Shown one piece after another: positions 34,293 to 63,483 of a stretch of DNA of 64,000 nucleotides. The notes below the pieces were generated by a model. The model ran no database searches and was not told the origin of the DNA. It saw nothing but the letters and a program-made list of their open reading frames with translations. Made by a program: the position numbers and the translations under genes. Within the stretch, counting starts at the first letter, position 1; each line of letters begins with the position of its first letter. The DNA comes from Macrostomum lignano. Lineage: Eukaryota. The stretch covers positions 7,018 to 71,017 of the forward strand of contig NIVC01003895.1 in assembly GCA_002269645.1 (NCBI GenBank), read 5' to 3'.

Positions 34293-34307
34293 ATTAAGTT
34301 AATAGAC

Positions 34308-34836
34308 AGTAGAATGCATGAGGGGGCTTCTGGGACAAAATTTTTCACGTCCTCCATAATCCACCTAAATCCATCCATATTATCCCTGACAGAATCAGAA
34401 AAAAAGGGGGGTCGCACTTGCTCCGAAAACGTCCTCCATAATCCCATTAAATCCATCCATATTATCCCCGACAGAATCATAAAAAAGGGGGGTCGCACTC
34501 GCTCACAAAACGTCCTCCATAATTCACCTAAATCCATCCATATTATCCCTGACAGAATCATGAAAAAGGGGAGGGGCCGCACTTGCTCCGAAAACTTCGA
34601 ACATAATCCCATTAAATCCATCCATATTATCCCTGACAGAATCAGAGCAGGTGTCCACTGATACCTGTTATGCTCACTGACACTGACATAATCCACTGAC
34701 ATCCACCCATAGCATTTTCGAAACAATAAGAAAATAATCTGCATTCTTCTTCCCACATTCAATTTGCAACGCGAAACCAGATCCCTAAAACTTTAAATCA
34801 TCAGCGCAGGGTCCTTACCCATTGAAAAAAATCTAA
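34308..34836 (+). repeat. Polinton left TIR, outer part (contains ~82-bp subrepeats)
   Basis: Reverse complement of ~62071-62595, differing mostly by homopolymer indels. Confidence 0.95.
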
Positions 34837-37800
34837 TCCTATATACTAAAAATGAGTTGTCTGTGGGTAGGTAGGTAGGTAGGTATGCGATAGATTTCAG
34901 AAAAAATGGCTCAACCGATTTTCTTCAAACTTGCATTATTCGATCAGAAATTTTCCTGGGACGGTACATGCATCTTGGCTAAGAAATTGCTCAATTTTAA
35001 AGGGATTAAATATTCGAAAAACATGCTTTTTTGCAAAGGTCAAGCAGCTCTTTCGACCTGAAATGCATTGTAAGAATGCTAGAGAAAAAACTGACTGACT
35101 GAATTCCGATTGTGATAAAGATTGCATCACAACAAGTTGAAAACAGTACCGAAGAAATGCACACACGACTTGATTTAAATTGCGTAACCATATTGCTAAC
35201 TTAAATTGAGACTGATACTGGCTGACTGAGAAATTGATTATGTCATAACTTTTTACTCCAATTGACTTGCTGTAAGAATTGAATTATAAGGGCCACAATT
35301 CATGTTCTCCAATTGAAAAGAGATAGCCCTGATGCGAACAGACTGGAATGCTAATGTAGCGACCTGGGTTCGAATCATAGTAGTGCAAAAAGATTTTTTT
35401 ATTAAAACACCTTAAAAACACAACAAAACTGCTAAACATCAAAGAAGCGCAATGTCAAACATAGAAGAGCCAACATATCGAACATAAAAGAGTTACCATG
35501 TCAAACATAAAAGAGCTACCATGTCGAACATTAAAGAGCTACCATGTCGAACATTAAAGAGCCACCATGTCAAACATAAAAGAGCCACCATGTCAAACAT
35601 AAAACAGCCACCATTTCGAACATTAAAGAGCCACCATTTCGAACATTAAAGAGCCACCATTTTGAACATTAAAGAGCCACTATGTCAAACAATTAAGAGC
35701 CACCATGTCAAACATAAAAGAGCCAACATGTCAGACATTCAAAAGCCACCGTATCAAACATAAAAGAGTTACCATGTAGAACAAAAAAGATCCACCATGT
35801 CGAACATAAAAGAGCCACCATGTCAAACATAAAGAGCCACCATGTCAAACATTTAGAAGCCACCATGTCAAACATATATGTGACTTTATGTCAAATATTA
35901 AAGAGCCACCATGTGAAACATTAAAGAGCCACCATGTCAAACATTTAAGAGTCACCATGTCAAACCTAAAAGAGCCACCATGTCGAACATAAAAGAGCCA
36001 CAATGTCAAACATTAAAGAGCCACCATTTCAAACCTAAAGGAGCCACCATGTCGAACATTAAAGAGCCACCATGTCGAACATAAAAGAGCCACCATATCA
36101 AACATAAAAGAGTTACCATGTCAAACATTAAAGAGCCACCATGTCAAACATAAAGCAGCCACCATTTCGAAAATTAAGGAGCCACCATTTCGAAAATTAA
36201 GGAGCCACCATGTCGAACATTAAAGAGCCACCATGTCAAACATTTAGGAGCCACCATGTCAAACATATATGTGACTTTATGTCAAATATTAAAGAGCCAC
36301 CATGTGAAACATTAAAGAGCCACCATGTCAAACATTTAAGAGTCACCATGTTAAACCTAAAAGAGCCACCATGTCGAACATAAAAGAACCACAATGTCAA
36401 ACATTAAAGAGCCACCATTTCAAACCTAAAGGAGCCACCATGTCGAACATTAAAGAGCCACCATGTCGAACATAAAAGAGCCACCATATCAAACATAAAA
36501 GAGTTACCATGTCAAACATTAAAGAGCCACCATGTCAAACATAAAGCAGCCACCATTTCGAAAATTAAGGAGCCACCATTTCGAAAATTAAGAAGCCACC
36601 ATGTCGAACATTAAAGAGCCACCTTGTCAAATATTAAAGAGCCACAATGTCAAACATTAAAGAGCCACCATTTCAAACCTAAATGAGCCACCATGTCGAA
36701 CATTAAAGAGCCACCATGTCGAACATAAAAGAGCCACCATGTCGAACATAAAACAGACACCATTAAGAACATTAAAGAGCCACCATGTCGAACATTAAAG
36801 AGCCACCATGTCAAACATTAAAGAGCCACCATGTCAAACATAAAAGAGCCACCATTTCGAAAATTAAGGAGCCACCATTTCGAAAATTAAAGAGCCACCA
36901 TGTTAAACATTAAAGGGCCACCTTGTCAAATATTAAAGAGCCACCATGTCAAACATAAAACAGCCACCATTTCGAAAATTAAAGAGCCACCATGTCGAAC
37001 AATAAAGAGCCACCATGTCAAACATAAAACAGACACCATTAAGAACATTAAAGAGCCACCATGTCGAACATTAAAGAGCCACCATGTCAAACATAAAACA
37101 GCCACCATTTCGAAAATTAAGGAGCCACCATTTCGAAATTTAAAGAGCCACCATGTTAAACATTAAAGGGCCACCTTGTCAAATATTAAAGAGCCACCAT
37201 TTCAAACCCAAAAGAGCGACCATGTCGAACATACAAGAGCCACCATGTCGAACATAAAAGAGCAGCCATGTAGAACATAAAAGAGCCACCATGTCGAACA
37301 TAAAAGAGCCACCATGTCAAACATAAAAAAGCCAGCATGTCAAACATAAAAGAGCCAACATGAAGAACATTAAAGAGCCACCATGTCGACCATTAAAAGA
37401 GCCACCATGTCGAACATACAAGAGCCACCATGTCAAACATTCAAGATATACAATTTCAAATGTAAAGGTATAAAGCGCCATGCTAATTTAAAGGAGCCAC
37501 TATAAAGCTAAGGAAATTGTCGCTCTAGCTACTTTTTGTCTGGTGGATGGTTGCTATTTGGGGGATGCTTGCTTTCTGGGGGATGCTTGCTATCTGGGCG
37601 ATGCTTGCAATTTGGGGGATGCTTGCTATCTGAGGGATGCTTGCTATCTGGTGGATGCTTGCTATCTGAGGGATGCTTGCTATCTGAGTGATGCTTGCTA
37701 TCTGGGGGATGCTTGCTATTTGGAGGATGCTTGCTTTCTGGGGGATGCTTGCTATCTGGGCGATGCTTGCAATTTGGGGGATGCTTGCTATCTGAGGGAT

Positions 37801-38313
37801 GCTTGCTATCTGGTGGATGCTTGCTATCTGAGGGATGCTTGCTATCTGAGTGATGCTTGCTATCTGGGGGATGCTTGCTATCTGAGGGATGCTTGCTATC
37901 TGAGGGATGCTTGCTATTTGGGGTATGCTTGCTATCTGAGGGATGCTTGCTATCTGGGGAATGCTTGCTATCTGGGGAATGTTTGCTATCTGGGGAATGC
38001 TTGCTATCTGGGGGATGCTTGCTATCTGGGGGATGTTTGCTATCTGGGGGATGCTTGCTATCTGGGGGATGCTTGCTATCTGGGGGATGCTTGCTATCTG
38101 GGGGATGCTTGCTATTTGAGGGATGCTTGCTATCTGGGGAATGCTTGCTATCTGGGGGATGCTTGTGGTCTTGGGAAGATTTCTTATTGCAATTCACTTC
38201 ATTTGAGCAGTTTGTCTGGCTCTTTGTGAAGGCTTTTCTGGCTGTCTTTTTGTTACTTGTAGAGAACAGAGATTCTATCCAGATGTCCCCCATCGGGGGG
38301 CGAAGATTGCTAG
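34837..38313 (+). mobile_element. Non-autonomous Helitron, copy A
   Basis: Host A | TCCTATATAC at 34837; hairpin plus CTAG ending 38313; 23-bp and 18-bp arrays. Confidence 0.88.
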
Positions 38314-41300
38314 TCCTATATACTAAAAATGAGTTGTCTGTATGTGGGTATGCGATAGATTTCAGAAAAATTGGCTCAACCGCTTTTCTTCAAACTTGCA
38401 CCATTCGATCAGAAATTTTCCTGGGACGGTACATGCATCTTGGCTAAGAAATTGCTCAATATTAAAGGGATTAAATATTCGAAAAACATGCTTTTTTGCA
38501 AAGGTCAAGAAAAATTTTCGACTTGAAATGCATTGTAAGAATACTAGAGAAAAACCTGACTGACTGAATTTCAATTCTGATAAAGATTACATCATAACAA
38601 GTTGAAAACAGTGCCGAAGAAATGCACACACAACTTGATTTCAATTGCGTAACCATATTGCTAACTTGAATTGAGACTGATACTAGCTGACTGAGAAATT
38701 GAAACTTTTTACTCTAACCGACTTGCTGTAAGAATTAAATTATAAGGGCAACAGTTCATGTTCTCCAATTGAAAAGAGATAGCCATGATGCGAACAGACT
38801 GGACTGCTAATGTAGCGACCTAGGTTCGAATCTTAGTAATGCAAAATAATTTTTTTATCAAAATACACTCAAACACAAAATGCCAAACATAAAGGAAGCG
38901 CGATGTAAAACATTAAAGAGCCAACCATCTAAAACATTAAAAGAGCCACCATGTCGAACATTAAAGAGCCACCATGTCAAAGATAAAAGAACCACCATGT
39001 CAAACATATACGTGACTCCATGTCAAACATATACGTGACTCCATGTCAAATATTAAAGAGCCACCATGTCAAACATAAAAAAACCACTATGTCAAAAATT
39101 AAAGAGCCACCATGTCAAACATTAAAGAGCCACCATGTCGAACATTAAATAGCTACCATGTCAAACATTAAAGAGCTACCATGTCAAACATTAAAGAGCC
39201 ACCATGTCGAACATTAAAGAGCTACTATGTCAAACATTAAAAAGCTACCATGTCAAACATTAAAGAGCCACCATGTCGAACATTAAAGAGCCACCATGTC
39301 AAACATAAAAAAACCACTATGTCAAAAATTAAAGAGCCACCATTTCAAACATTAAAGAGCTACCATGTCAAACATTAAAGAGCCACCATGTCGAACATTA
39401 AAGAGCTACTATGTCAAACATTAAAAAGCTACCATGTCAAACATTAAAGAGCCACCATGTCGAACATTAAAGAGCCACCATGTCAAACATTAAAAGAGCC
39501 ACCATGTCGAACATTAAAGAGCCACCATGTCAAACATATACGTGACTCCATGTCAAACATATACGTGACTCCATGTCAAACATATACGTGACTCCATGTC
39601 AAATATTAAAGAGCCACCATGTCAAACAAAAAGAACCACTATGTCAAGCATTAAAGAGCCACAATTTCGAACATTAAAGAGCTACCATGTCAAACATTAA
39701 AGAGCCACCAGGTCGAACATTAAAGAGCCACCATGTCAAACATTAAAGAGCCACCATGTCAAACATTAAAGAGCAACCATCTCAAAGATAAAAGAACCAC
39801 CATGTCACACATATACGTGACTCCATGTCAAACATTAAAGTGCCACAATGTAAAACATTAAAGGGCTACCATGTCCAACATTTAAGAACCACCATGTTAA
39901 ACATATACGTGACTCCATGTCAAACATATACGTGACTCCATGTCAAACATTAAAGAGCTACCATGTCAAACATAAAAGAACCACTATGTCAAGCATAAAA
40001 GAGCCACCATTTCGAACATTAAATAGCTACCATGTCAAACATTAAAGAGCCACCATGTCGAACATTAAAGAGCCACCATGTCAAAGATAAAAGAACCACC
40101 ATGTCAAACATATACGTGACTCCATGTCAAACATATACGTGACTCCATGTCAAATATTAAAGAGCCACCATGTCAAACATAAAAAAACCACTATGTCAAA
40201 AATTAAAGAGCCACCATTTCAAACATTAAAGAGCTACCATGTCAAACATTAAAGAGCCACCATGTCGAACATTAAAGGGCCGCCATGTCAAACATTAAAT
40301 AGCCACCATGGCGAACATTAAAGAGCCACCATGTCGAACATTAATGAGCCACCATGTCAAACATTAAAAGAGCCACCATGTCGAACATTAAAGAGCCACC
40401 ATGTCAAACATATACGTGACTCCATGTCAAACATATATGTGACTCCATGTCAAACATATACGTGACTCCATGTCAAATGTTAAAGAGCCACCATGTCAAA
40501 CATAAAAGAACCACTATGTCAAGCATTAAAGAGCCACCATGTCAAACATTAAAGAGCCACCATGTCGAACATTAAATAGCTACCATGTCAAACATTAAAG
40601 AGCCACCATGTCAAACATTAAAGAGCAACCATCTCAAAGATAAAAGAACCACCATGTCACACATATACGTGACTCCATGTCAAACATTAAAGAGCCACCA
40701 TCTCAAACATTAAAGGGCTACCATGTCAAACATTTAAGAACCACCATGTTAAACATATACGTGACTCCATGTCAAACATATACGTGACTCCATGTCAAAC
40801 ATTAAAGAGCTACCATGTCAAACATAAAAGAACCACTATGTCAAGCATAAAAGAGCCACCATTTCGAACATTAAATAGCTACCATGTCAAACATTAAAGA
40901 GCCACCATGTCAAACATTAAAGAGCAACCATGTCAAAGATAAAAGAACCACCATGTCAAACATATACGTGACTCCATGTCAAACATATACGTGACTCCAT
41001 GTCACACATATACGTGACTCCATGTCAAACATTAAAGAGCCACCATGTCAATCATTAAAGGGCTACCATGTCACACATTAAACAGCCACCATGTCGAACA
41101 TTAAAGAGCTACCATGTCAAACATTAAATAGCCACCATTTCGAACATTAAAGAGCTACCATGTCAAACATTAAAGAGCCACAATTTCGATTATTAAAGAG
41201 CTACCATCTCAAACATTAAAGAGCCACCATGTCGAACATTAAAGAGCTACCATGTCAAACATTAAAGAGCTACCATGTCAAGCATTAAAGAGTCACCATG

Positions 41301-42491
41301 TCAAACATTAAAGAGCCACCATGTCAAGCATTAAAGAGCCACCATGTCAAACATTAAAGAGCTACCATGTCAAGCATTAAAGAGCCACCATCTCAAAGAT
41401 AAAAGAACCACCATGTTAAAAATATACGTGACTCCATGTCAAACATATCCGTGACTCCATGTCAAACATATCCGTGACTCCATGTCAAACATTAAAGAGC
41501 CACAATTTCGAACATTAAAGAGCTACCATGTCAAACATTAAAGAGCCACCAGGTCGAACATTAAAGAGCCACCATGTCAAACATTAAAGAGCCACCATTT
41601 TGAACATTAAAGAGTCACTATGTCAAACATTAAAGAGCCACTTTGTTGAATATTAAAGAGCCACTATGTCAAACATTAAAGAGCCACCATGTCAAACATT
41701 AAAGAGCCACCATGTCGAACATAAAGGAGCCACCATGTCGAACATAAAGGAGCCACCATGTTGAAATTTAAAGAGCCAACCTGTAAAACATTTAAAAGAT
41801 TCACCATGTCAAACATATAAGACACTTCATTTCAAACATAAAAGAGCCACCATGTCAAACATAAAAGATACACAATTTCAAACGTAAAAGTGAGCGAATT
41901 TTAAAGGAGCCACTATAATACTAAGGAAATTGTCGCACTAGCTACTTATTGTCTGGTGGATGCTTGCTATTTGGGGATGCTATCTATCTGGGGGATGCTT
42001 GCTATTTGGGGATGCTATCTATCTGGGGGATGCTTGCTATCCGGGGGATGCTTGCTATCCGGGGGATGCTTGCTATCTGGGGGATGCTTGCTATCTGGGG
42101 GATGCTTGCTATCTGGGGGATGCTTGCTATCTGGGGATGCTTGCTATCTGGGGGATGCTTGCTATTTGGGTGATGCTTGCTATCTGGGGGATGCTTGCTA
42201 TCTGGGGGATGCTTGCAATCTGGGGGATGCTTGCTATCTGGGGGATGCTTGCTATTTGGGTGATGCTTGCTATCTGGGGGATGCTTGCTATCCGGGGGAT
42301 GCTTGCAATCTGGGGGATGCTTGCTATCTGGGGGATGCTTGCTGTCTTGGGATGATTTCTTTTTGCATTGCACTTCATTTGAGTAGTTTGTCTGTTTTCT
42401 TTGTGAAAGCTTTATTTGGCTATCTTCTTATTACTTGTAGAGAACAGAGATTCTATACAGATGTCCCCCAACGGGGGGCGAAGATTGCTAG
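38314..42491 (+). mobile_element. Non-autonomous Helitron, copy B
   Basis: Exact CTAG|TCCTATA junctions at both ends; distinct array unit variant aaacatatacgtgactccatgtc. Confidence 0.88.
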
Positions 42492-45400
42492 TCCTATATA
42501 CTAAAAATGAAATGTGTGTCTCTGTGAGATAGATTTCAGAAAAAACGGCTTAACCGATTTTCTTCAAACTTGCACCATTCGATCAGAAATTTTCCTGGGA
42601 CGGTACATGCATCTTGGCTAAGAAATTGCTCAATGTTAAAGGGATTAAATATTCGAAAAACATGCTTTTTTGCAAAGGTCAAGCAGCTCTTTCGACCTGA
42701 AATGCATTGTAAGAATGCTAGAGAAAAAACTGACTGACTGAATTCTGATTCTGACAAAGATTGCATCACAACAAGTTGAAAACAGTGCCGAAGAAATGCA
42801 CACACGACTTGAATGAAATTGCGTAACCATATTGGCAACTTAAATTGAGACTGATTCTGGCTGACTGAGAAATTGATTATGTCATAACTTTTTACTCCAA
42901 TTGACTTGCTGTAAGAATTGAATTATAAGGGCCACAATTTATGTTCTCCAATTGAAAAAGATAGCCCAGATGCGAACAGACTGGAATGCTAATGTAGCGA
43001 CTTGGGTTCGAATCTTAGTAGGGCAAAAAAGATTTTTTTTTATTAAAACACCTTAAAAACACAAAACTTCTAAACATAAAAGAAGCGCAATGTCAAACAT
43101 AGAAGAGCCACCATGTCGAACATAAAAGAGCTAACATATCGAATATTAAAGAGCCACCATGTCAAACCTAAACGAGCCACCATGTCTAATATTTAAGAGG
43201 CACCATATAAAACATATAAGTGACTTTATGTCAAACATAAAAGAGCCACCATTTCTAACATTAAACAGCCACCATTTCGAACATTAAAGAGCCACCATGT
43301 CGAAAATAAAAGAGTCACTATTTCGAACATCAAAGAGCCACTATGTCAAACATTTAGGAGCCACTTTTTCGAACATTAAAGAGCCACCATGTCAAACATA
43401 AAAGAGCCAACATGTCAAACATAAAAGAGCCAACATGTCAAACATAAAGAGCCACCATGTCAAACATTTAAGAGCCACCATGTCAAACATATATGTGACT
43501 TTGTGTTAAACATTAAAGAGCCACCATTTCGAACATTAAAGAGCCACCATGTCAAACATGAAAGAGCTATAACATGAAGAATATTAAAGAGCCACCATGT
43601 CGAACATAAAAGAGCTGCCATGTAAAATAACAAAGAGCTACCAAGTTAAACATAAAAGAGCCACCATGTAAAACATTAAAGAGCCACCATGTGAAACATT
43701 AAAGAGCCACATTGTCAAACCTAGAAGAGCCACCATGTCGAACATAACAGAGCTACCATGTCAAACATTAAAGAGCCACCATGTCAAACATTCAAAAGTT
43801 ACATTGTCAAACATTGAAGAGCCACTATGTCAAACATTTAGGAGCCACTTTGTCGAACATTAAAGAGCCAACATGTCAGACATTAAAAAAGCCACCGTAT
43901 CAAATAAAAAGAGTTAACATGTAGAACAAAAAAGAGCCACCATTTCGAACATAAAAGAGCCAACATGTCAAACATAAAGAGCCACCATGTCAAACATTTA
44001 AGAGCCACCATGTCAAACATATATGTGACTTTATGTCAAACATTAAAGAGCCACCATTTCGGACATAACAGAGCTACCATGTAAAACATTAAAGAGCCAC
44101 CATGTCAAACATTAAAGAGCCACCATGTCGAACATAAAAGAGCCACCATGTCAAACCTAAAAGAGCCACCATGTCGAAAATAAAAGAGCCACTATTTCGA
44201 ACATTAAAGAGCCACCATTTCGAACATTAAAGAGCCACCATGTCGACCATAAAAGAGCCACTATTTCGAACATTAAATATCCACCATGTCGAACATAAAA
44301 GAGCCAACATGTCAAACATAAAAGAGCCAACATGTCAAACATAAAGAGCCACCATGTCGAAAATGAAAGAGCCACACCATGGGGGGCCGTAGCCCAGCGG
44401 TAGCGCAGCTGCTCTGGTGTGCCGCGACCCAGGCTCGATTCCAAGTGCAGCCACATTAATTTGGGGCTGGATTGGAATCTTGGCTTGGCTCGCTTGTGCA
44501 ATTAACGGCCTTGAGAGCCAACCCCCCCAAGGCGCAGTGAAGTGTACATGCCTAACAATTGATAAAAGTTAGGGCCGCTGTACACTCCTGTGTGAGTGTG
44601 TGCCTGCGTAACGTATCCGCGCGCTTGTATGCCTGCTCAGGGGAGTCGGCGGAATGGGCAGTAATGCCTCTCGCCGGTTGTGTGCCTATGACGCTTAAAT
44701 TGCGCCAGGGTGCACACAACCCCCCTGCCTCTAAAAAAAAAAAAAATAAAAAAAATAAATAAAAAAAATAAAAAAAAAATAAAAAAAGAGCCACCATGTC
44801 GAAAATGAAAGAGCCACAATTTCGAACATTAAAGAGCCACCATTTCGAACATTAAAGAGCCACCATGTCGACCATAAAAGAGCCACCATGTCAAACATGA
44901 AAGAGCTATAACATGAAGAATATTAAAGAGCCACCATGTCGAACATTAAAGAGCCACCATGTCGAACATTTAAGAGCCACCATGTTAAACCTAAAAGAGC
45001 CACCATGTTAAACCTAAAAGAGCCACCATGTTAAACCTAAAAGAGCCACCATGTTAAACCTAAAAGAGCCACCATGTCAAACCTAAAAGAGCCACCATTT
45101 CGAACATATAAGTGACTTTATGTCAAACATTAAAGAGCCACCATGTCAAACATTAAAGAGCCACCATGTAAAACAAAAGAGCCACCATTTCGAACATTAA
45201 AGAGCCACCATGTCAAACATTTAAGAGCCACCATGTTAAACATAAAAGAGCCACTATGTTGAACATTAAACAGCCATCATGTCAAACCTAAAAGATCCAC
45301 AATTTCGAACACTTAAGAGCCACAATGTAGAATATTAAAGAGCTACCATGTCAAACATTTAAGAGCCACCATGTCAAACATTTAAGAGCCACCACGTAAA

Positions 45401-47012: not shown

Positions 47013-47071
47013 TAGCCAACTACAAGGTTGTACCTGGCGGCTTATATCAATGTTACAAGTCTGAAGACGAC

Positions 47072-50022: not shown

Positions 50023-50057
<35 letters not shown>

Positions 50058-50876: not shown

Positions 50877-50967
50877 AAGATGAGAGCTAGCATTAAAAAA
50901 GGAAGTGGTTTCAAATTTGACTAAAGGGTACTTTCCGAGGGTACAAGAAATGTAAAGGTACAAGACT

Positions 50968-51114: not shown

Positions 51115-51915
51115 ATGGACTTTTCAAACGACTTCAATCCTCACTGGACACGTAATCAGATTAAGTTTTCTCATCACGAGTCGATCCCAAGTCACTTCAG
51201 ATGCATTGTTGTTGGTTCATCAGGTTCAGGTAAAACATTCAGAGTCTTTAACATGCTTCTTAGACCTGGCTTTATCGACTATGACACTCTGCACATCTAC
51301 TCTCCCACACTGTATCAAGATGAGTATAAAATGCTGATTTCTGGATTGCAAAACAAACTGAACAAAGAGGACATTATTCAATGTTTTAATAACCAACAAA
51401 ACCTTCCCAGCAACCCAGAAATTGTAGCTGCTGAATATGCAAAGCACCTCAAAGACAATGAAAAATGGCAGAACATTAAAGTGTTCACCTATGGAGATCC
51501 ACAGGCTGATCCAAAGACCAAACTTCTACCCCAACCAGATGAGCTAGAAAAAGGGAGAAAGCATTTGATCGTCTTTGATGATTGTATGACAGGCCCACAG
51601 AAGCAGATAGAAAACTATTTTACAAGAGGACGACATAACAATTGTAATGTAATTTAGATTGCACAGAACTGGTTCGAGCTCCCGAACAAAACAATTCGTG
51701 GGAACTGTAATCTGATTCTCCTGTTTCCAACCATTCCACAGGATAGGCTAAAAAGATTTTACAATGAGGTCATTGCGCCAGCCTATTTTATAAATCCAAC
51801 AAAAAACTCAAACAGAAAGATTTCACAGGAGGAATTCGTTAACCTCTGCTTCGAAAAGTGGAACCAACCCTATCAGTTTGTCGTGATCAACAAGGAAAAA
51901 AGAACTGTAATCTAA
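51115..51915 (+). pseudogene. A32/FtsK-like packaging ATPase with an in-frame TAG at 51655-51657
   Basis: Walker A GSSGSGKT, Walker B LIVFDD, FTRGRH. The frame continues past the TAG (IAQNWFELP...KWNQPYQFVVINK) to TAA at 51913-51915. Confidence 0.92.
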
Positions 51916-51931
51916 AATTTGCTATTAAAAG

Positions 51932-52915
51932 ATGTCTATTAATTTTGCAGGTGAATCCATTTCTGGCAACAGCGCTCTTACATCAGCTCAGATATCCATC
52001 CTTGAAGGCGATATATCAACAGCGACGAAAAGATCCCAGAGATCAAACTGAATAAAAACAGACTGAAAGCCCTAGAGCGCTCCATGCACCAGTTGCAAAT
52101 AAACATGGAAGATCTCAGGCTTAAAGTAGCTAGGCAGAAGTTTGAAAGTGATAAGCTTTTTGTTGCTCATATTGAGGTGCACTAGGTGCTGTGGGAGCAT
52201 TTGGATCATAAAGAGAATTTTGAGCATCCATTTTTAGAGAATTTTTAAAAAAAATTGACAACTAGTTGGTGGTGGTTAGATTTGTTTTACGTTTGATTGT
52301 TTCGTCTGCAGTTGGCGCCAGCAGGTCTCTTCGAATCTACCTTTTTATTTGTCTATGCGCTCCATTCTACACTTGATCTCAAACAAACCGGTTAGCTCAC
52401 GAAATTTTGGGTTAGTGGTCAAATTGGTTGGCTCACGAAATTTGTGGTCAGTGGTCAAGTCGGTTGGATCACTTATTTCCCTTGTGGTCTGTGGTGCCTC
52501 TTCAACAGTATCAATATCAGGAAGATTGTGTACTCCCTCAAGACGACTGATTCTTCTCAACGATTTCTGCCATTCGGTAAAAATTAAATCTAAATAGACT
52601 TTAATTGCATCAAGTCTTTTTTTAATTCTATCATGCAACGCTGTTGACTGGTTCATGAACTCTTCTAAATTCCTCACTTTACCTGTGTTGGTTGCGACGT
52701 TTTCTTTAATTCTATCATGCAGCGCTGTTGACTGAGTCATGAACTCTTCTAAATTATTTACTTTAGCTTTGTTTGTGAAAGCTCCTCCTTCAAGAATACG
52801 CATCCGTCTATCAGTGGAATTTCCCAGAAGATTAACTGATGATCTCAAGCCGTTGATTAGCGAGACTATCGAAGTTATTTCTGACCTCAGTTCATTAGTT
52901 GCGTTTAACAACGGC
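51932..52915. pseudogene. Coiled-coil gene A split by an inversion (51932-52163 on +, 52915-52345 on -)
   Basis: Un-inverting gives ...FESDKLFV-PLLNATNELRS... in frame. One extra A in the run at 52028-52031 is also needed for a 267-aa product. Confidence 0.75.
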
Positions 52916-53483
52916 ACAAAAACTCTACCCCGTCATTACTTGTAACTCTCAGCAGTTTCGAATGGTGGAGATTCAAAAAATGCGCGATGATCTTGAAAAA
53001 AATATTTTCCACAACACAAAGAAAATTAAGCGCTATGACAGCCACTGTAAATTTTTCGACTACAGCAATATGATTCTAGGATCTGCGTCTGTTCTATCTG
53101 GATCTGCTGCAGCTGTCTCAGTGTTGCCAGTCATCACAGCCCCAATCGCAATCCCGCTCGGCTCTGTGGGTGCTGCATGTGGACTTATTTCAGCAATTAC
53201 TGGAGCATTAGCGCGAAACAGGCGAAAAAAACTAAAACAGCTACAGGAGAAGCAAGTAAAAGAGAAAGGGGTGCACACTTCAATCACAGGGTACGTTTCA
53301 AGGGCAATCGAGGATAAGTTCATTTCAGAGGATGAGTTCAAAACCATTCAGGATCTTTATGAACAATCAATTCGAATGAACTTGAACATGGTCGGTACTG
53401 ATGACATGAGTCAGCTGAAAAATGAACTCGAGAAAGTTTTTCAACATTATGCGGCAAGAAGGACAACGAGAAATGCACAATGA
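52164..53483. pseudogene. Transmembrane gene B split by the same inversion (52231-52164 on -, 52916-53483 on +)
   Basis: Un-inverting gives an intact 636-bp ORF, MDAQNSLYDPNAPTAPSAPQYEQQKLYPVITC...FRMVEIQK, with two hydrophobic segments and an ISEDEF motif as in a conserved Polinton membrane protein family. Confidence 0.8.
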
Positions 53484-53487: not shown

Positions 53488-53889
53488 CTATGAAACACAG
53501 GTACGAATAATTTCCTTGTAGGTCTTTCGTGTTTTGGTCATTGCATACAAAACAGTCATGCACAGCTCACCGCAAATATCACTGCTAAGACCTTGGAGAA
53601 TAAAGTCTGAGTGGTAAATTTTTTTATTATTTTTCCCCTTCATATAATTTCTTAGCTCTTCTGGTACTGCCGTCCCATAGCTATCAAAGTAATAACACTT
53701 GTGCTTGCGATCGGGATCAATCACCCAGCAAACCCAATGAGATCCTGGCTTGTCGGTGGTGTCAAAGTTCATGATGCCGCATTCTTTTCTTAGAGGAAAA
53801 TCAGGCAGAGTGTCCCTCATAAATATTCCTCTAAAGTTTGGGATTTCCAGTTCGTTAGCCAAATCTTCAAGAAAGTTATTTGTCGTCAT
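53488..53889 (-). CDS. Adenain-like cysteine (maturation) protease, 133 aa
   Basis: GSHWVC (His), YFDSYG (Asp), LQ...ICGELC (Gln/Cys). Confidence 0.92.
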   Translation of the reverse strand: MTTNNFLEDLANELEIPNFRGIFMRDTLPDFPLRKECGIMNFDTTDKPGSHWVCWVIDPDRKHKCYYFDSYGTAVPEELRNYMKGKNNKKIYHSDFILQGLSSDICGELCMTVLYAMTKTRKTYKEIIRTCVS

Positions 53890-53930: not shown

Positions 53931-54033
53931 AAACCTAAACCCAATCTCCAGTGCCCGAACCCAATCTCCAGTGCCCGAACCTAATCTCCACCTCCTAAAC
54001 CCAATCTCCTAAACCTAATCTCCAGTGCCCGAA
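53931..54033. repeat. Short tandem duplications (~20 bp) at the PolB 3' end
   Basis: ccaatctccagtgcccgaac repeated. Confidence 0.8.
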
Positions 54034-57000
54034 CGGTAGACTGTTAATATTGTCATCAAAAATGAATCTCTTGTTATCTGCACCTGACAGTCCAATCTTC
54101 TTTTGCTGAATTGTGTGAATAATATGGTTTTTTGATTGTAGCTTTGAGAACTCATGTGATGTCTTTTTGTTGCAATTCAAGGCGTCTCTGTATTCAGCTT
54201 CATTAATTTCCTTCCTTACGACGCGTTTCGGAATTCCCTTTGATTTTTTATTGGGTCTGACGACTCACATTTTACAAAATAGGACTTTGCTCTCAACCCA
54301 ATGAATTCAGTGATTATGTCACCAGCAATCTCGTCCTTCATTTTCCCAATCACTTTTTTGTTAGTGGCGTCAAACACTTGATCGCCATTCTGTGTCCTGA
54401 AAGATTCATCATACTCAGACAAGTCAAACATATCTTTTTGCTGCAGCATATCCTGATAAATGTCTTCTGTTTGAATGTCCATAATAAAACTGTCTGTGTC
54501 AGTGTACAAGAGTTTCATTTTATCCTTGTACTGCTGCTTCATGCCATAGAAGAACTGGTACATCAGACGTTTTGATTCGTCGAGAACAGTGACACCTGTA
54601 TAGATCGGCTTGCGCAGCGTCACCTTGGTTTTGTAAAATATGATCACACCTAAGTAGCTATTAAAGATATGGAGTTCTTTGAACGTTGGCTTTGACATAT
54701 TTGCCTGAATAACAGCAGGCTCTGATGAGGTAACAAGTTTCAGGTTTGTTCTTTTCCGCTCATTCTCAAGAGTCTTGCCATAGACAGAGTTGTTGGCCAA
54801 CTTAAAGAGGTTCTTGTCAAAGTCGTTGGTTGCTTTGGTCCTAAACTGGGTGTTCTTATCAATGTAGGGTTTCATCCACGCTTCCTCTGTAAATGTAACA
54901 GCCCTGTGAACTTTGGTGACCCTGCAACCAAGTGAGATAAAATACTGAAGCAGTTTGTAATGGATTTTGTAACGTGTCTTGTTGTTTAGATTCTGTGTTA
55001 GTTTTTCTGTATGTTCTTTTTCTGTTCCTGACAGGTGCCAAGTTCCATTGGGAGTTTCGATTATTTTCGGGCACTTGATGTTCTCTGGGAAGGGTGGAAA
55101 GTCAGAGAAATAGTCGTGAAGCTCTGGTGGAATGTAAACATCAACCTGATAAATGGCAGCCAATGAAAAGTCCCATTTGAATTCTGATGAGGGTAGCCAT
55201 CGAAAATCTCTAACTGGAAGATCTTGACTCATCGCCCACCCGTAGAGATTATTAGCGTCCAAGTAAGTAATGTAGTTTGAGGGCTGCTCCTTATTGTAAG
55301 ATTCAATGTAGGGATTGTTTGCTTTTGCATACCTGTTAACGCAAATTGAGATTCCCCCTCGCTTTGACGATTCGACAAAATTGTACATGTCAATGTCTGT
55401 AAGAAGTTCAATGTACCAATCTGGATCTTGATCCCATTTCATTTTAAGCAAAGATTCCCAGCTAGTGGCAGGCAGAGACACATAATGTGCTGGATCTGCT
55501 GTGTACCAGGTGTATCTGAAGGTTTCAAACACATCGGCCAGCAGAAACACATCTGTGTAGAGGTAAAGCATGTGATACTGGAAGAAGTTTTGACAATTAA
55601 AGTAATTATAGACATGCTTCGCGTGCTCATAGTCTTTGTCAGAGATTCCAGAGTCTGTTAGCTTTGAAAAGAACTTCTCCTGTGGTGGTAAACCTTCTTC
55701 AAATACGTGATACCCAGTAATATTTTCATAGGGTAGAAGCCTTTGGTTCTCAGGAGTTTAAATGATTCATCACTGTTGTAAACTTTACTTGCAAACGTCT
55801 TTGTATATGTACATTGTTCATCTTTTAGATTCTTGCTTAGTTCGTCTAGACTGGCAGCTAGAAATTGATATGAATCCTTCAGTCTTATTTTACCTTTACC
55901 CGAATTATCCTGTTTAATATCAACACACTTAAACTTCTCCTTGTTCTCTGCGATGCAATCAAGGTGTATGTCTGGAATCATGCCGATTTTTTCAACTATT
56001 AAATGCATGTCATAGTTCTTTGCGTTGTGGCAAAATATCGTTAGATCATGAATGTTCGATTTTAGCTTTAGATTACAGGTGTTATGCGCTGCACCTCTAA
56101 ATTTCCCAGTATAGTGGTAGTGGTCTCTAACGGTCGGGTTTTTAATATCAGTGCAAGTTAACTGTTTCCTGCAGATGTGAGAATGAATTGCTGATAGGAA
56201 ATTGCTTTCATCCTCCTCAGTCATCATTATTGGAACAGGTTGAAGCTAGGGTGCTAATCAATTTTTGCAACTCTAACATTCTGGCAATAAACTGCTCCAC
56301 ACACTGCTCTCCAAAGAAATAATTATACTCAACAAGTCCTTTTGTATTAATAAAGGCATATGCTACTGAATTGGGGACATGTTTTTGAGTTTGAGTTTGT
56401 TTTTGAGTTTCTGGCATGATTGAGCATTCGAAATCAGCATATACAACAAATGGGAGCTTCTCCATCTTGTGATAGTTCTTAAACCGGAATACTTCTCTTC
56501 AGCTGAAGGAAGAGAGCAGTTTGTTGGGTGATCCTCGCATGATAATTCATGCTCTGCTAGTTTTTCAAGCGTTCAGGTCCACTGTAATGCTTAAGGCACA
56601 AGCGGCAGATGGCAACAGCCTCGTGATGATTATTCAACTGCTTGTGAATGAGTCTTGAAAGATCTTTAATCCAAACATAGTGAGCCTCCTCTAGTAAATT
56701 ACCAATCACTAGAAGATCCACTTCAGTCCGCCTTTTCCCCTCAGGATCTAAAACGTCTTTGCTACATCTGACCGGTTGAACTTTCTCAGTTTTTTCACTC
56801 CATTCAAAGACTGTGATTCTAATTTTGTTATTAAACACTTCTTCTAGCTTTGGGATCTGAGAGATCGCCAAGCCTCCTTTGTCAAACCTGATTCCCTTCT
56901 TTTCGCATTCGATGAGATAGTAGTTGAAATAATTTTGATAATTTGAGGTTCTTTCGGGGTGGTGAGGTACACTAAAAAGTGCAGAAAGAACTGCCCATAG

Positions 57001-57807
57001 AGCACAGCAATTGTCTTTATTTTTAACATTTATGCAAGCTTTTTTGCCGGCTAGCTTATGCGGGAGCTCTATATAAGAGGAGGCTTTAAGTGGGTCATAT
57101 TTCATGACCATGACAGTCGCTCTTTGAATCCCTCCTACGACCCATCCGGAACCTCTGGATGTAAACGCTTCAATTTTCTTAGTGACATCTTGAAGGAAAG
57201 GATCCAGTGTGTCTGTAGGGGTGAATGGCTTTGCCTTTGTTGTCATGTAATACTCGAGATGCTCAGTGGGTTTTGCAGGCATATAAAACGCAATCTTGAA
57301 TGATATCTGTAGTTTAAAAGTCTTGCGTGTTTTGAGTGTGTGATCAACAACTGATTGGATGCTATCTTTATAGTCGTAGATGTTTGCGGTGGTATCCTTA
57401 ATTGGGATTGTGTACTCTATGTAATGTTCTGTAAACTTCCTCTGTGCAAAATTAATCTCTTCAATGGCAAGCTCCGACTCTTTTAAATGGATTAATTGCT
57501 CTAATTTCTCTTGTTCCTGCTTATTTTGTGGGTACTTTGCTTTTTCACCAGTGAGAGTTTCGTATTTGTTAACTAAGTTGCGACTCCTCTCTTGGTGTTC
57601 CTTTGCAGGATTTTTTATAGGCGCATACTGGTTGGATTCTAATTGATTGATGATTTCCAACTGTTTTTCATAGCTTCCCAGGTGACCAGGGTCGGTGTTA
57701 AACTTTTGTTTACATGCTTCTCTTAGTAAATTACTTTTGTCTTGAAATGAGACGCCTTTTGAAAAATATTTGTTGACTAAATCTTTTGCTGGATTAGCTT
57801 TTGGCAT
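53995..57807 (-). pseudogene. polB: Protein-primed family B DNA polymerase with Endonuclease VII-like insert, several frameshifts
   Basis: Fragments 56557-57807, 56217-56465, 55658-56227, 54216-55571 and 53995-54180. Motifs YADFE, HNAKNYD, YLDANNLYGWAM, KLANNSVYGK, YTDTDS, KKVIGKMKDE, and DHYHYTGKFRGAAHNTCNL. Confidence 0.95.
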
Positions 57808-57930: not shown

Positions 57931-58377
57931 TCACATGCGCATTATTGTAAACCCAGCATTGTGCAGTGTCATGATTGCTTTGACAATGTCAGACTTGCTT
58001 ACAGAATTTTCATGCTCACAATCATCACAATCAGGGCAACCATCTCCTGCCTTAATTGTTATACCTTTGTCTCTTGCAATCTTTTGCAATTCTAGCTGGT
58101 GGGCTCTATCATTACCAGCTTTAACAGCAGTTGCTACACCTCCAGCTACACCACCTGCGGCACTTACAGCGCCTGCAATGATTGGGATAAGAGCTGCTAA
58201 TGGTAGGATTCCTCCTGACTTTTCATCTGTGATGCTGTGTCTTTGCTCATTACACTCAACTATTTGCTGTGTGGGATCGATTTTTACTTTGATACCTTTA
58301 ATTGATACAAGACCTGGTTTCTTTGATTCAATGATTTTATTGAGTTTATTGAGGGTTCTAGTTTCAATCTTTGTCAT
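57931..58377 (-). CDS. Adenovirus pX-like core protein, 148 aa
   Basis: SGGILPLAALIPIIAGAVSA resembles the adenovirus pX C-terminus RGGILPLLIPLIAAAIGA. Confidence 0.65.
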   Translation of the reverse strand: MTKIETRTLNKLNKIIESKKPGLVSIKGIKVKIDPTQQIVECNEQRHSITDEKSGGILPLAALIPIIAGAVSAAGGVAGGVATAVKAGNDRAHQLELQKIARDKGITIKAGDGCPDCDDCEHENSVSKSDIVKAIMTLHNAGFTIMRM

Positions 58378-58392
58378 TTTTTATTTTTATTT

Positions 58393-59426
58393 TTAATTAA
58401 TTTCTGTGTCAGCTAGTATCACTAGGAGTTCAGCTCTAGTGAATGACCGCGTGGGGGATTTAGGGTTAAAGGTTTGAGATAAAAAGTAATAGTCACCGGA
58501 GTCGGAGGTAAAATGTCTGTCTATTTTATGTACATCAAGGCTGAAGTATGGATCTGTAGCTCTTCTTTTGTGTCCTTCTCTAGCTCTCCAGGTAGATATA
58601 AAAAGCGTAGAAACTCAGAGTTTGTCAGTATGTATGGTGATTCAACTGCTGGAAGCTTAGGGTAGTTCGAGTGTGTTTTGTGTTGTGTGTGTTGTGTAGG
58701 GGTTGTCGTGTTGTTGTCTGTTCTATGAGTTGCCTTAAGTTCGACAGTGTCTTGTTTAATTGCATGGGACGGTTTCAATCCAGTCATGCGTGTGACTTCA
58801 TTGTTCAGTTGCTCTATAACAGTGGGGAGCCGGTCTGTCCATTTTGAATAGTACTGACCACTTTTTAGTTTCAGCTCCTCAGCTGTCTGCTTAGTGAATA
58901 GCCTCTTGGCTAGAGTTAGATTGAATCTCTCACGTACGCTTGGTCTCTGTGCAAGTTTGTTCTGCCATAGCGAATTTTTGTGTCATACTTATGTAGGAGA
59001 CTTCGTACTGCCCCATAGAATTCCTTACCCTGATCGGCCATGAACATTTCTGGATAGGTTAGAGGAGAGTTTCATAGATCTCTTGCAGTGCGCTGGCAAC
59101 AACCTCTGACTTCTTCGTCTTGAGTGGGCGAGCTTCCTTATATCTGGAAGCAACGTCTATAATTGTAAGAGCATACTTGTAGCCTGAGTCGTTGGGAGAA
59201 ACAAAAGATCTGCTTGGTGCGCTTCATTAGGTTTATAGATGCTAAAGTGAGGTCTTGTAAATTTTACTGGTGGGAAATAGACTTGAAAGACAGCCTGCTT
59301 AGAGAGCCACTTTTCTACTGTAGCTTTTGGTTCCTTACTTAGTTCTGCGAGTTTGGTGACTGCATTTTTTCCTACAAAGAATCCTTTTTCGCTGTAGTAG
59401 AGCTTTTGAAGTTTCTGATCTGTCAT
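58393..59426 (-). pseudogene. Retroviral-like (rve) DDE integrase, frameshifted
   Basis: HQADLLF, LTIIDVASRY, ADQGKEF, ERFNLTL, MTGLKP, GELEKD and C-terminal PTRSFTRAELL, spread over several frames. Confidence 0.9.
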
Positions 59427-59467
59427 TTTTAAAAAAAATTAAATAAAAGAAAATTTTAAATAAAATA

Positions 59468-59830
59468 TTGCAGTGCTATGGTGGTAAAATAGATTCACAT
59501 GGACTGATAGAAAAGCTTCCTCATCCAAACAAAGGCTGGACAGTTCCCGGGTACAAATATTGTGGGCCTTTGAATCCACTTGAAATACAGTTAGATAAAA
59601 ACAATAATCCAAATCCTGGGCATGAGCCTGTGAACGAGCTAGACTCTGTCTGCATGTGGCATGACATCTAGTATAGAGATTTTCCTGAGGAGAAGAATCG
59701 GTGGGACAAAGAAATGCTTAGGAGATTAGACCATATGGGGGCTTCAAGCGGATTTCGTGAGTCGATTGCTAGGAAATTAGTCAAGGCGGTTATTTTTGGA
59801 AAGACAAAATTGGGTTGGGGGTGTACGCCG
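59468..59830 (+). pseudogene. Parvovirus-type phospholipase A2 (PLA2X-like) with an in-frame TAG at 59669-59671
   Basis: Ca loop PGYKYCGPLNPL, catalytic HD (WHDI). The same frame continues YRD...WDKEMLRRL...KTKLG. No ATG at the expected start. Confidence 0.85.
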
Positions 59831-59946
59831 AGGGCGGGGTGGGCTTTGTATTGCACGCACCAAGTAAAAAAACTAGGCAGACTGCTGAAAGAGCTGGGGT
59901 TGAGAGAGCAGAATGATTCAAGCAAGAATATTCAGCTCATTCTTTT

Positions 59947-60052
59947 GAGAGACAACTGGAAAACATTTTTAGAGAAATTATTTTTTTCGGAGGATGAGCA
60001 CCCTGGGTTTAGGTAATTAAAGTCTTTGGGATCTGGTTTCGCGAATTGAATG
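59947..60052. repeat. Degenerate internal copy of part of the right TIR
   Basis: gagagacaactggaaaacatttttagagaaa...gggatctggtttcgcg...ttgaatg matches 62040-62152. Confidence 0.8.
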
Positions 60053-60196
60053 ATCGACTTTACTACATGTACCAAATTAAAGGAAGACTTCCAAAATTGA
60101 TATTAATAATTAACTATTATAAAACAATATATTTGAAATTAAATAGGATAAAAATTTAAATTAAGAGAAATACCGAGAATGTTCAGTGTAGTTATA

Positions 60197-60413
60197 GAAA
60201 AATTGTAACTTTTCCTGATCGTTCAGGATTTTTATTCAGGATTTTTTTTCAGACATTAACATTACTAACTACTAACAGTAGAAAAATCGCAACTTTTCCT
60301 GATCGTTCAGGATTTTTATTCAGGATTTTTTTTCAGACATTAACATTACTAACTACTAACAGTAGAAAAATCGCAACTTTTCCTGATCGTTCAGGATTTT
60401 TATTCAGGATTTG
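60197..60413. repeat. 84-bp tandem repeat with a CCTGA-TCGT-TCAGG palindrome
   Basis: About 2.6 units, period 84 (60281 vs 60365). Confidence 0.9.
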
Positions 60414-60568
60414 TTAGTTCCTGAAGTCGCAGTAGTAAAATCTTAACTTAACATTCAAAGTAAATAAAATAAATAATGTTACTCATCTACTACCGAAGCG
60501 TTATTCCATTCCATATTTGTTTCGTCCAACAGATCGTCATCTTCTTCTCCTTGAAATACAATCTCAAA

Positions 60569-61320
60569 TCAACCTCTAGTTTCGAACAAAAATTGTCGTC
60601 TTGGTCGGCTTCTTTTTTCGATCGTTTTCTTAAACGCTAACAACGTCTCCATTGAGTATCCAGTCAACGCCAGATTAGGATATTTTCTCATAAGATTATG
60701 GAATGTGAATAGCCGCTCGGCAAACTTTATCCCAATGTCCAACCGCTTGGCCGCCACTTCTGTGCTCACCCCTAGTTGATTTTTCAGTTCGGCCAGAACT
60801 TCAGCCTGCTTTTTCCTGGCCAAACAGCTAAGTGTTTCTATCTCCGCGATGAACATTTCAAGGGTGTTGAATTGCAGTCGTTTGCCGTCCACATCAGCTT
60901 GAAACAGGTCCCATACAAAGATTTTTAACTCGGAGAACCTAAAGGAAAGAATATTGGATCATAATGTGAATAAGGTCAAAGGTTTGCTTGCAAAAAATAT
61001 CCAATCTATGTCCAATTTCTAAAAATAAGCAAGACTTACCTCGTCTTAATCACCAGCTGTTCGTTTTTTATTGAATTAATTTTTTGCTTCAAGCGAGCTA
61101 AAAACCGAGCTTTCCGGTCTTCTTTATCTTGAGTACAAGATTTCTCTTTCTCCGAACGCTCTTTTCTTATAGAATTTACGTCTACTTTTTGTAAAATTTT
61201 TAAAAGTAAAGCTCTTTCGTGATCTTCTAGATTAGCAATGGCGATTGCCGTACTGGCGGAATCTTTACTACTAATACTCCTTAGCGTATTCAGAATTTTT
61301 ACAGCGTCGCTGGAACTCAT
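60569..61320 (-). CDS. Spliced Polinton accessory gene (exons 61320-61040 and 60938-60569)
   Basis: AG|GTAAGT donor, pyrimidine tract plus TTTAG acceptor, 101-bp phase-2 intron joining two ORFs in frame (VIKTR-FSELKIF...VDGKRL). The C-terminus may be frameshifted near 60615. Confidence 0.72.
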
Positions 61321-61384
61321 GACGAGGCGGAGCAGACCCTGCGGCGGGTAGGCGGGCTGGGGCGAGGGCGGTGTGAATCGGCTG

Positions 61385-61399
61385 TTTATATACCATTGG
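61385..61399 (-). promoter_or_regulatory. CCAAT + TATATAAA promoter of the spliced gene
   Basis: Minus strand accaatggTATATAAAcagc, ~65 bp upstream of the ATG at 61320, with GC-rich sequence downstream. Confidence 0.6.
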
Positions 61400-61818
61400 T
61401 GTGGGCTCGGGAATCCATGGATTCTCTTTTTATTCTAGAATATTCTAGAATAAGGGAAACCCACAGATTTTCAACTTATAGCCAGTATTTTCTATTAATG
61501 GTTGATTGGGGTTGCCTGGAAAACGGACGGGTTATGTAAAGAACTAGGAAGACTACTGAAAGAGTTGGGGGTTGAGAAGGTTGGGGTTTAAACAAGGAAC
61601 TAAATGGGCGTTTCTGAAGCTAGGCAAGGGATCCTTTGAGCTAGTTAAGGCTTGAGCTGGGCAAGCTTTTTCTCTATGCTGCACCACGCCGCTCGCGCTA
61701 TGATAAGAAACAGCTGCCATACCCATTCCGCTATCACCCACCCACCACACAGCAAAATACCATGCGTAAAAATATCTATTAATGCAGTCTTAGTCTTAAA
61801 GCGTATTGTAGCGACATT

Positions 61819-62058
61819 CTACAATTGCCTAATGATTTCTGCAAAGTTATAGTAGCTGTCGTAATCTTTTACGTAGGTTACTCCGTACTTATGAAACCAG
61901 TGTCTTTGAAGAGCTAGATTAATATTAGGGGCATTGATATCAACATCGGGCCAATATTTTCTCATGTACTCGCTGCATTCCTTCTTGCATTGGTACTTAC
62001 TCTTGTAATTAGGCTCGTGCGCTTTGTAATAAGAACCTGGAGAGACAACTGGAAACAT
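61819..62058 (-). CDS. 79-aa ORF in the right TIR (MFPVVSPGSYY...IIRQL)
   Basis: Mirror of 46773-47012. Confidence 0.6.
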   Translation of the reverse strand: MFPVVSPGSYYKAHEPNYKSKYQCKKECSEYMRKYWPDVDINAPNINLALQRHWFHKYGVTYVKDYDSYYNFAEIIRQL

Positions 62059-62595
62059 TTTTAGAGAAAAATTAGATTTTTTTCAATGGTAAGGACCCTG
62101 CGCTGATGATTTAAAGTTTTAGGGATCTGGTTTCGCGTTGCAAATTGAATGTGGGAAGAAGAATGCAGATTATTTTCTTATTGTTTCGAAAATGCTATGG
62201 GTGGATGTCAGTGGATTATGTCAGTGTCAGTGAGCATAACAGGTATCAGTGGACACCTGCTCTGATTCTGTCAGGGATAATATGGATGGATTTAATGGGA
62301 TTATGTTCGAAGTTTTCGGAGGCAAGTGCGGCCCCTCCCCTTTTTCATGATTCTGTCAGGGATAATATGGATGGATTTAGGTGGATTATGGAGGACGTTT
62401 TGAGCGAGTGCGACCCCCCTTTTTTCTGATTCTGTCGGGGATAATATGGATGGATTTAATGGGATTATGGAGGACGTTTTCGGAGCAAGTGCGACCCCCC
62501 TTTTTTCTAATTCTGTCAGGGATAATATGATGGATTTAGGTGGATTATGGAGGACGTGAAAAATTTTGTCCCAAAAGCCCCTCATGCATTCTACT
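61819..62595 (-). repeat. Polinton right TIR (uninterrupted)
   Basis: Reverse complement of 34308-34836 plus 46760-47012. Confidence 0.95.
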
Positions 62596-63483
62596 ATAGA
62601 CCAATCAAGATCCAAATATTTTGTCTGTAAAAAAACATCGAAGATTAGATTTGTTTACTTTCAAGGCCTATTTAGTCTTTGTTTCAAATTCTCCATTTGA
62701 AGAATTTTGCTTCATTCCATGTGCTTCAATATTTGTGAGCCAAAACGATATCTAAATTTTTATTTTTTTGGTCAATTGCAACGGCTGTCATCGCTTTAAG
62801 GCCTATAACACCCAGTGCCAGAACGTGTGATGGATTAATCCAGAAATTAGTAGTGGCTACAAGCCAACATATTTAGACTTGACCGGCGATGATACCCCGA
62901 CTTCTCGACCTCCTACACTCCTACATGGCATAACTCATAACTAACTAAATCTGTCATGGTTTGATAATTATGCAATTAGAAGCAAGCGTATTTCTTTAAA
63001 CTTTAGTCAAGATTACTACCAGTACTTCTTAAGTGTTATAATTATGTGCATAAATTTTTTCTAGTTTTTTAATAATAAGTTATTTTGTTTAATTAGACTC
63101 CGCTTCCAAGAAATTCGACACATACGATTTTAAACATGCAACTTATGTAATACAACTTATTACAGTCTTTTCTGTAAGCATGTGGCAGCAGTCTTTGACT
63201 TTGATCAAGCAGTCTATGTGCTGTGACCGTAGGATGCACTGGTTGTGCAGGAAACTCATTTTACGTATAGTATTCGCAGATGGCTAATCGTAGCCAGGCA
63301 ATTAAAGCTTTTTTATTTGAAACCGATGGGAGGCTAGTATTACAGCAAGCGGACTTTAATAACGTGGGATTTAGGACATATAATACAACAGAATGCATAG
63401 AATGCTTGGGCTTGAAAACACACTAACACTATGCAAGATTCAAACGTTTCAGACTAATTAGAATCTTTTCCGTCTGCATGTAT

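Follow-up and report, generated by a model that had tools for sequence, protein, structure and literature searches.

Whether a virus-like element resident in a flatworm chromosome still spreads as a virus, and what could prompt it to leave, is the question raised by a stretch of 64,000 nucleotides (the window) from Macrostomum lignano (GenBank assembly GCA_002269645.1, contig NIVC01003895.1, positions 7,018 to 71,017 of the forward strand). The window holds a Polinton at 34308-62595. In this study, the element was found to be, very probably, a recent and now defective insertion from a high-copy Polinton family. The family likely spreads as a virus-like element that recombines and forms capsids, and Helitrons were inserted into this copy later. 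Near its right end lies a spliced gene behind a candidate heat-shock element.

Boundaries, age and gene content

Polintons have long terminal inverted repeats (TIRs) that begin with AG and end with CT. The element in the window starts with AGT at 34308 and ends with ACT at 62595, and the 6-bp target-site duplication (TSD) ATAGAC flanks it at 34302-34307 and 62596-62601 (both plus strand). Its left TIR is split into a distal part (34308-34836, plus strand; 529 bp), which contains internal 79-81-bp repeats and is 97.9% identical to the right TIR (61806-62595, minus strand), and a proximal part (46760-47025, plus strand; about 266 bp), which carries on the match. The TIRs thus measure about 790 bp. 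The interruption at 34837-46759 is an 11,923-bp stack of Helitrons, and the element spans 16,365 bp once this insert is subtracted. An earlier reading of the DNA from sequence alone (the sequence-only reading) had given the same hexamers, termini and bounds, an element of about 16.4 kb and a Helitron stack that separates the left end from the genes, and all of these hold; its matching TIRs also stand, at a length greater than the 760 bp it proposed.

When the right flank was used as a query, the locus turned up in three copies: the window, a separately assembled twin (G000:C211) and an empty site (G000:C3437). The twin shares both flanks and the Polinton with the window, and has no Helitron stack. 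The empty site, 89-97% identical to the locus, carries a single hexamer, TTAGAC, one mismatch from ATAGAC, much as the sequence-only reading had expected of an empty allele. The insertion is therefore polymorphic across locus copies. This indicates that the Polinton was inserted after the empty copy diverged, and that the stack arrived later, in one haplotype. Two further signs point to youth: the TIRs of the twin are 98.5% identical to each other, and 19 substitutions in about 17 kb separate the window from the twin.

Searches with Pfam profiles and structure models, together with motif reading, recovered every gene of the virion and replication set that had been named for this element. At the left lies the penton or minor capsid protein (47072-47929, minus strand; 285 aa, open), whose model matches the mavirus penton (E 3e-6; structural alignment Z 9.1, rmsd 7.1, 209 aligned). 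It is followed by the double jelly-roll major capsid protein (MCP; 47951-49246, minus strand; 431 aa, open; PF21738, 6e-8). The MCP model matches the double jelly-roll capsids of Sputnik, PBCV-1 and iridovirus (E ~1e-11) at a sequence identity of 7-13%, and both proteins thus model as jelly-roll folds, as had been predicted, with a single jelly-roll in the penton. Both genes belong to capsid allele A. Next come three plus-strand genes: a Gln-rich gene (49279-50540, about 400 aa); a small basic, core-like protein (50535-50924), mostly 123-129 aa in sister elements, for which we infer a core role; and an A32-like packaging ATPase (51115-51915; PF04665, 7.5e-7 on a sister and 7.8e-5 on the window). 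A coiled-coil gene starting at 51933 and a gene ending at 53483 are both cut by an inversion described below, the second at its front. The adenain-like maturation protease (53488-53889, minus strand; 133 aa) has its His, Asp, Gln and Cys motifs and matches PF00770 at 3.6e-4, just under the cut-off.

The protein-primed polymerase PolB occupies 53990-57807 (minus strand; low boundary approximate). Its frame is broken here; exonuclease and polymerase motifs and an endonuclease-VII-like insert are present in the window, a sister open reading frame (ORF) matches PF03175 at 5.5e-17, and a comparison with PDB sequences gave no match. Cys and His motifs, placed by motif reading alone, lie in its N-terminus where a vOTU domain is expected, and we take them to be a putative vOTU. 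Polinton PolB is described as carrying terminal protein (TP) and vOTU domains at its N-terminus (PMC11161782). An intron at the front of PolB is not needed, as sister frames run continuously up to 1,315 aa. The remaining genes are a pX/mu-like core protein (57931-58377, minus strand; 148 aa, open; PF05829, 4.6e-7), an rve integrase (58400-59426, minus strand, low boundary approximate; PF00665, 7e-11 on the twin ORF) and a parvovirus-type phospholipase, PLA2 (59474-59905, plus strand; PF08398, 9e-14 on a sister).

The element is a textbook Polinton of the eupolintovirus or adintovirus type; gene set, folds and TSD all agree with the earlier identification. A pfam03175-type PolB together with PLA2 points to the Alpha adintovirus class (PMC8502044), and both markers are present, a placement by gene content alone. 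Alpha adintoviruses as described in that source share with this element the TIRs, the 6-bp TSD, the PolB type, rve integrase, adenain, ATPase, double jelly-roll hexon, penton, PLA2 and a pX-like sequence. They differ in having pX fused to PLA2 (PLA2X), whereas PF05829 here matches a separate 148-aa gene and not the 166-aa sister PLA2; a spliced heat-shock slot gene of the kind described below is absent from the excerpts of that source. Because pX is unfused, the element was not filed under the Alpha genus. The family has since been renamed Eupolintoviridae, in the order Amphintovirales (PMC12451622), and related insertions are known in rhabditophoran flatworms (10.1101/2025.04.19.649669).

Lesions of this copy and selection in the family

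Lesions were called by comparing the window with the twin and with aligned sister elements. The window runs to the end of its contig. Over the part from 50940 up to that end, 43 small indels and 16 substitutions separate the window from the twin, and nine of these indels fall in the host flank; in the 5.85-kb left flank there are 4 indels against 34 substitutions. Where contigs built from short reads cover the single-copy right flank (about 145 nt), they disagree with the window at 3 gaps and at no substituted base. The integrase (345 aa) is open in the twin and broken in the window sequence alone. PLA2 (143 aa) is also open in the twin; its stop at 59670-72 is found in the window only, and may be an assembly error or a new mutation. 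Four of the five PolB frameshifts are likewise window-only, and the PolB of the twin has one break of its own. These comparisons suggest that most window-only breaks in integrase, PLA2 and PolB are likely assembly errors. As a warning for this assembly, calls of disrupted genes close to contig ends are often consensus errors.

The same excess of indels, in host flank as well as element, could mean that the copy is nearly intact and that all of its breaks are long-read assembly errors. This is very improbable, because five lesions are identical in the two separately assembled contigs: a frameshift near 49706 in the Gln-rich gene, the stops at 50874-76 (small basic protein) and 51655-57 (ATPase), an inversion at 52157-52922 and a PolB frameshift near 56243. 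The PolB frameshift is absent from 35 of 35 aligned sisters and the Gln-rich frameshift from 17 of 17, and no other locus examined has either stop or the inversion junctions. The inversion is bounded by 7-bp inverted microhomology, and its junction 31-mers are confined to the window and the twin. A phase-variable invertible segment was considered for 52157-52922 and rejected, as every matching sister has the other orientation and the junctions do not occur beyond these two contigs. Private core sites of this copy number 66 of 11,933, errors included. Together with the shared private lesions, this fits neutral decay after insertion.

With the ATPase stop and the PolB frameshift among its shared lesions, the copy remains non-autonomous, as the sequence-only reading had concluded from a different set of lesions. 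In that set the broken ATPase and PolB persist, and the disruptions of integrase and PLA2 and four of the PolB frameshifts fall away as window-only; the inversion, two of the shared lesions and the terminal cassette had been overlooked. A supply of capsid protein by this copy, also proposed earlier, is possible and of little importance, since open MCP genes are common across the genome.

How common the family is was seen from its exact 19-nt termini, of which the genome contains 486 (control, 0). The search for sister copies that the earlier reading had called for thus yielded many relatives, few of them fully open. Among 663 MCP candidates, the 97 best-scoring ones were scored: 28 are 97-100% identical, 4 are 85-92% and 65 are 82-83%, and most have no stop. 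In nine elements picked by their termini, MCP is open in six, and ATPase or protease in five. A preferential preservation of capsid genes, which was considered, is therefore a sampling effect. Allele A of the window is the rarer one; eight of the nine carry the other capsid allele, and the ninth has no MCP. Of 37 sisters examined, 24 have both ends, with a perfect TSD in 18 and one mismatch in 2.

The ratio of nonsynonymous to synonymous substitution rates (dN/dS) between alleles is 0.08 for MCP, 0.05 for penton and 0.02 for ATPase, within a range of 0.02-0.40 over all 18 pairs tested. The two capsid alleles are 79% identical, and penton and MCP are always inherited as one block. In 16 TSD-matched elements, all four combinations were seen for each pair of capsid, ATPase and Gln-rich alleles. 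PolB is near-constant across these mosaics, so that two capsid alleles stand on PolB genes that are 95-99% identical, and identity switches sharply near 49160, 50360 and 51860. By these comparisons, purifying selection acts on the family, and its copies are mosaics of blocks. That two capsid alleles are both under selection argues for a role of shells in spread, and block mosaicism argues that copies recombine during replication or after integration. Exchange of replication and morphogenesis modules has been described on larger scales in Polisuviricotina (10.64898/2026.10.13.758929; 10.1101/2023.08.22.554363); here the copies that exchange single blocks are very young and belong to one genome.

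A recombining, capsid-forming cycle may be outlined as follows. PolB would copy the linear genome from the TIRs, the rve integrase would insert it with a 6-bp duplication, and the ATPase would package it into shells of MCP and penton, which the protease would mature; these steps are expected from what is established for Polintons (PMC11161782). Co-replicating copies would swap blocks at conserved junctions, a step proposed here. The copy in the window cannot replicate or package alone; its ends could still move in trans, as the TIRs of the twin are undisturbed.

The family could also be a pure transposon that copies itself within the nucleus and undergoes gene conversion, with capsids that have an intracellular role or hitchhike and form no infectious particles. 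Conversion could draw on hundreds of integrated templates, and 79 pattern matches in IMG/VR gave no confirmed free viral relative. This alternative is nevertheless rather unlikely, given the strong purifying selection on two such divergent capsid alleles, transmitted as one penton and MCP block. PLA2, an entry-type protein in the description of PMC8502044, is also under selection (dN/dS 0.23), and close MCP relatives (40-75%) lie on short contigs of assemblies. Host domestication of the capsid module, accompanied by decay of the replication genes, would agree with the open MCP, penton, protease and pX genes at this locus. It is extremely improbable: the insertion is polymorphic, in terminus-picked copies the capsid genes (six of nine open) have no clear advantage in preservation over ATPase or protease (five of nine), and the first sample owed its clean capsids to the way it was selected.

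Several points weigh against a capsid-forming family that is still active. The selection on the capsid genes speaks for their usefulness and does not demonstrate virions, which are predicted here from the genes. The MCP and penton models are of moderate confidence (pLDDT 62 and 63). Four of the 24 sisters with both ends bear unrelated hexamers, and some mosaics may thus be assembly chimeras or ectopic recombinants. All seven short genes are open in none of the nine terminus-picked elements and in 4 of 37 overall, by a rough heuristic whose count is depressed by assembly noise and stretch edges. An open PolB frame of at least 1,250 aa occurs in 5 of 66 matches, which leaves current autonomy of the family unsupported. 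No RNA data set is recorded as containing the capsid genes. Two sequencing runs that show the spliced joint described below contain part of the capsid words (0.72 in X5, 0.66 in X17); this was not counted as capsid expression, as DNA or read-through is possible.

Other observations were made on the sister elements. In some of them the TIR is enlarged to take in the 3' half of penton (L030:2883-3344, L040:2876-3337, L068:3838-4299), and this growth suggests end-to-end copying. The C5022 element (L013, L015, L017, L018) has the left flank of C2192 and a right hexamer equal to the left hexamer of C4651; by this pattern it is either an assembly chimera or an ectopic recombinant. A 1,930-codon frame (L043:394-6186) has a large insertion fused in frame to the Gln-rich gene. 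More distant Polinton-like genes lie beside or inside family copies (L038:2-5451 and L057:289-6089), where the same Helitron is found. MCP pairs in opposite orientation occur within about 7-40 kb at G000:C1652, C633, C2829 and C2787. Rfam gave no group I intron match in the window and 8 sister loci, and GGNCC avoidance was not found, the element having 18 GGNCC sites.

The variable terminal slot and its spliced gene

Between PLA2 and the right TIR lies a hypervariable slot. Its 35 stretches fall into 23 clusters, and the distance from PLA2 to the terminus ranges from 1.4 to 5.9 kb. At its inner edge the window has a degenerate internal copy of TIR sequence (59947-60052, plus strand; 79%). The slot of the window holds a minus-strand cassette gene with exon 1 at 61040-61320 (94 codons, helical or coiled-coil-like), a spliceosomal GT..AG intron at 60939-61039 (100 nt in the twin) and exon 2 at 60479-60938 (about 150 aa, weak helix-turn-helix (HTH) signal). 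Upstream, at 61385-61450 on the same strand, are a TATA box (61385-61392) and, 40 nt from it, a perfect four-unit heat-shock element (61433-61450). Downstream, 84-bp repeats (60195-60412) each contain a 16-bp palindrome (60213, 60297, 60381).

The two minus-strand ORFs match the halves of a single intronless sister protein (E 1e-9 and 3e-18). The intron is skipped in contigs from two of four sequencing runs from different studies, at a depth below 3, with a short-side overhang of 62 nt in X5 and 28 nt in X17; the contig of X13 is unspliced through the intron, and X19 has no coverage there. The cassette allele of the window is common to four assembled loci, so the spliced transcript is not assignable to the window copy. 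The gene family has 95 matches of 25-100% identity. Exon 2 was matched in 23 of 26 loci examined. Among these 23, a perfect upstream motif is present in 12, the splice donor is at the same position in 17, and 4 are intronless; a repeated downstream palindrome, its sequence varying with the allele, occurs in 21, a count without a shuffle baseline.

A word-indexed search found no homologue of the cassette protein, and a profile search found 57; its closest named relatives are proteins of M. lignano. Pfam and PDB profile searches for its fold gave weak matches only, including those to HTH proteins (best PDB match E 0.51; single-member Pfam HTH matches E 0.03-0.05 among 42). Two further, unrelated cargo families occupy the slot elsewhere (L008:5247-5924, L030:4351-5034 and relatives; L064, L072, L042), some behind a perfect four-unit heat-shock element of their own; two of these genes, when tested, had no Pfam match above the cut-off.

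The heat-shock element upstream of the cassette gene is one found against 0.03 expected, and none appeared in 100 shuffles. Perfect four-unit elements occur in 9 of 29 complete slots and nowhere in 416 kb of cores. Three versions of their sequence are found, in front of three genes that are unrelated to one another, and the nine slots represent three independent types. From these sequence patterns we propose, tentatively, that the host heat-shock factor may switch on the slot gene, whose product may bind the downstream palindromes; this remains doubtful. The broader proposal is about as doubtful: a prophage-like stress switch, in which a slot with interchangeable genes would be under host heat-shock-factor control, here with a spliced DNA-binding protein and its own palindromic operators.

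Alternatively, the motif at 61433-61450 may be a site for an element-encoded protein, or a functionless passenger. The downstream palindromes of some alleles (L088, L089, L091) resemble the motif, only about half of the exon-2 loci have a perfect copy upstream, 18 of the 29 slots have none, and the spliced transcript comes from low-depth runs of unrecorded treatment. This explanation is on balance somewhat unlikely, since the repeat is a perfect four-unit one close to a TATA box, appears in three versions before three unrelated cargo genes, and is missing from both the cores and the shuffles.

Other mobile elements carry such motifs. The plant retrotransposon ONSEN reportedly has heat-shock elements. 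Helitrons of Caenorhabditis are likewise reported to bear them (PMC6927752). Unlike in those cases, the motif here precedes a gene that is dedicated cargo of a virus-like element; it does not lie in a long terminal repeat or a non-coding repeat. Literature searches yielded no paper that describes a Polinton heat-shock cassette or this Polinton family; genes of this kind may be drawn in the supplementary genome maps of PMC8502044.

Helitron stack, neighbouring features and significance

Helitrons start with TC, end with CTAG after a 3' hairpin, and insert between A and T without a TSD. The stack in the left TIR consists of three non-coding units of this type on the plus strand, with a precise junction between A and T and no TSD. 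Unit 1 (34837-38313) is non-autonomous, runs from TC to CTAG with a 3' hairpin and contains 23-bp and 18-bp arrays; unit 2 (38314-42491) has ends 88-90% identical to those of units 1 and 3; unit 3 (42492-46759) holds a SINE-like insert of about 440 bp (~44373-44814) with poly-A and a direct repeat of at least 30 bp, in which a tRNA scan found nothing. Across the stack the unit ends are 4-15% apart. This shows that the units are separate insertions, and excludes a single rolling-circle concatemer. Later units would most simply re-use the A-T site left at the 5' end of each insertion. Exact 5' ends of this Helitron family number 1,418 genome-wide, frequently at spacings of 3-5 kb. With all these hallmarks, internal tandem repeats and head-to-tail stacking, the stack is ordinary for non-autonomous Helitrons. 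A solo unit at 25058-28882, absent in the twin, has ends 99.6-99.7% identical to those of stack unit 3, and its place 17 kb upstream of that unit suggests a local hop.

Elsewhere in the window, a 273-bp satellite array of about 21 copies (17162-23642) lies between TCTA microsatellites and is absent or much shorter in the twin. ORFs at 4102-5537 (plus strand) have what we take to be fibrinogen C-terminal-like motifs, and likely belong to a host gene. A 515-codon open frame (29542-31089, plus strand) contains about eight acidic repeats of 28-33 residues. Two related small Cys-rich ORFs, PAN/apple-like by eye (16326-16817 and 31551-31967), each adjoin a 27-bp minisatellite, and the Polinton was inserted at the end of the second of these arrays.

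In sum, this genome, likely that of a laboratory flatworm, contains hundreds of young, polymorphic and recombining Polinton copies with selected capsid genes, which makes the question of virions testable by observation. The slot with its heat-shock elements names a candidate trigger. If the stress switch proves true, host stress would be coupled to the reactivation of integrated virus genomes, and this would provide an initial means of learning when Polintons of animals exit the chromosome.

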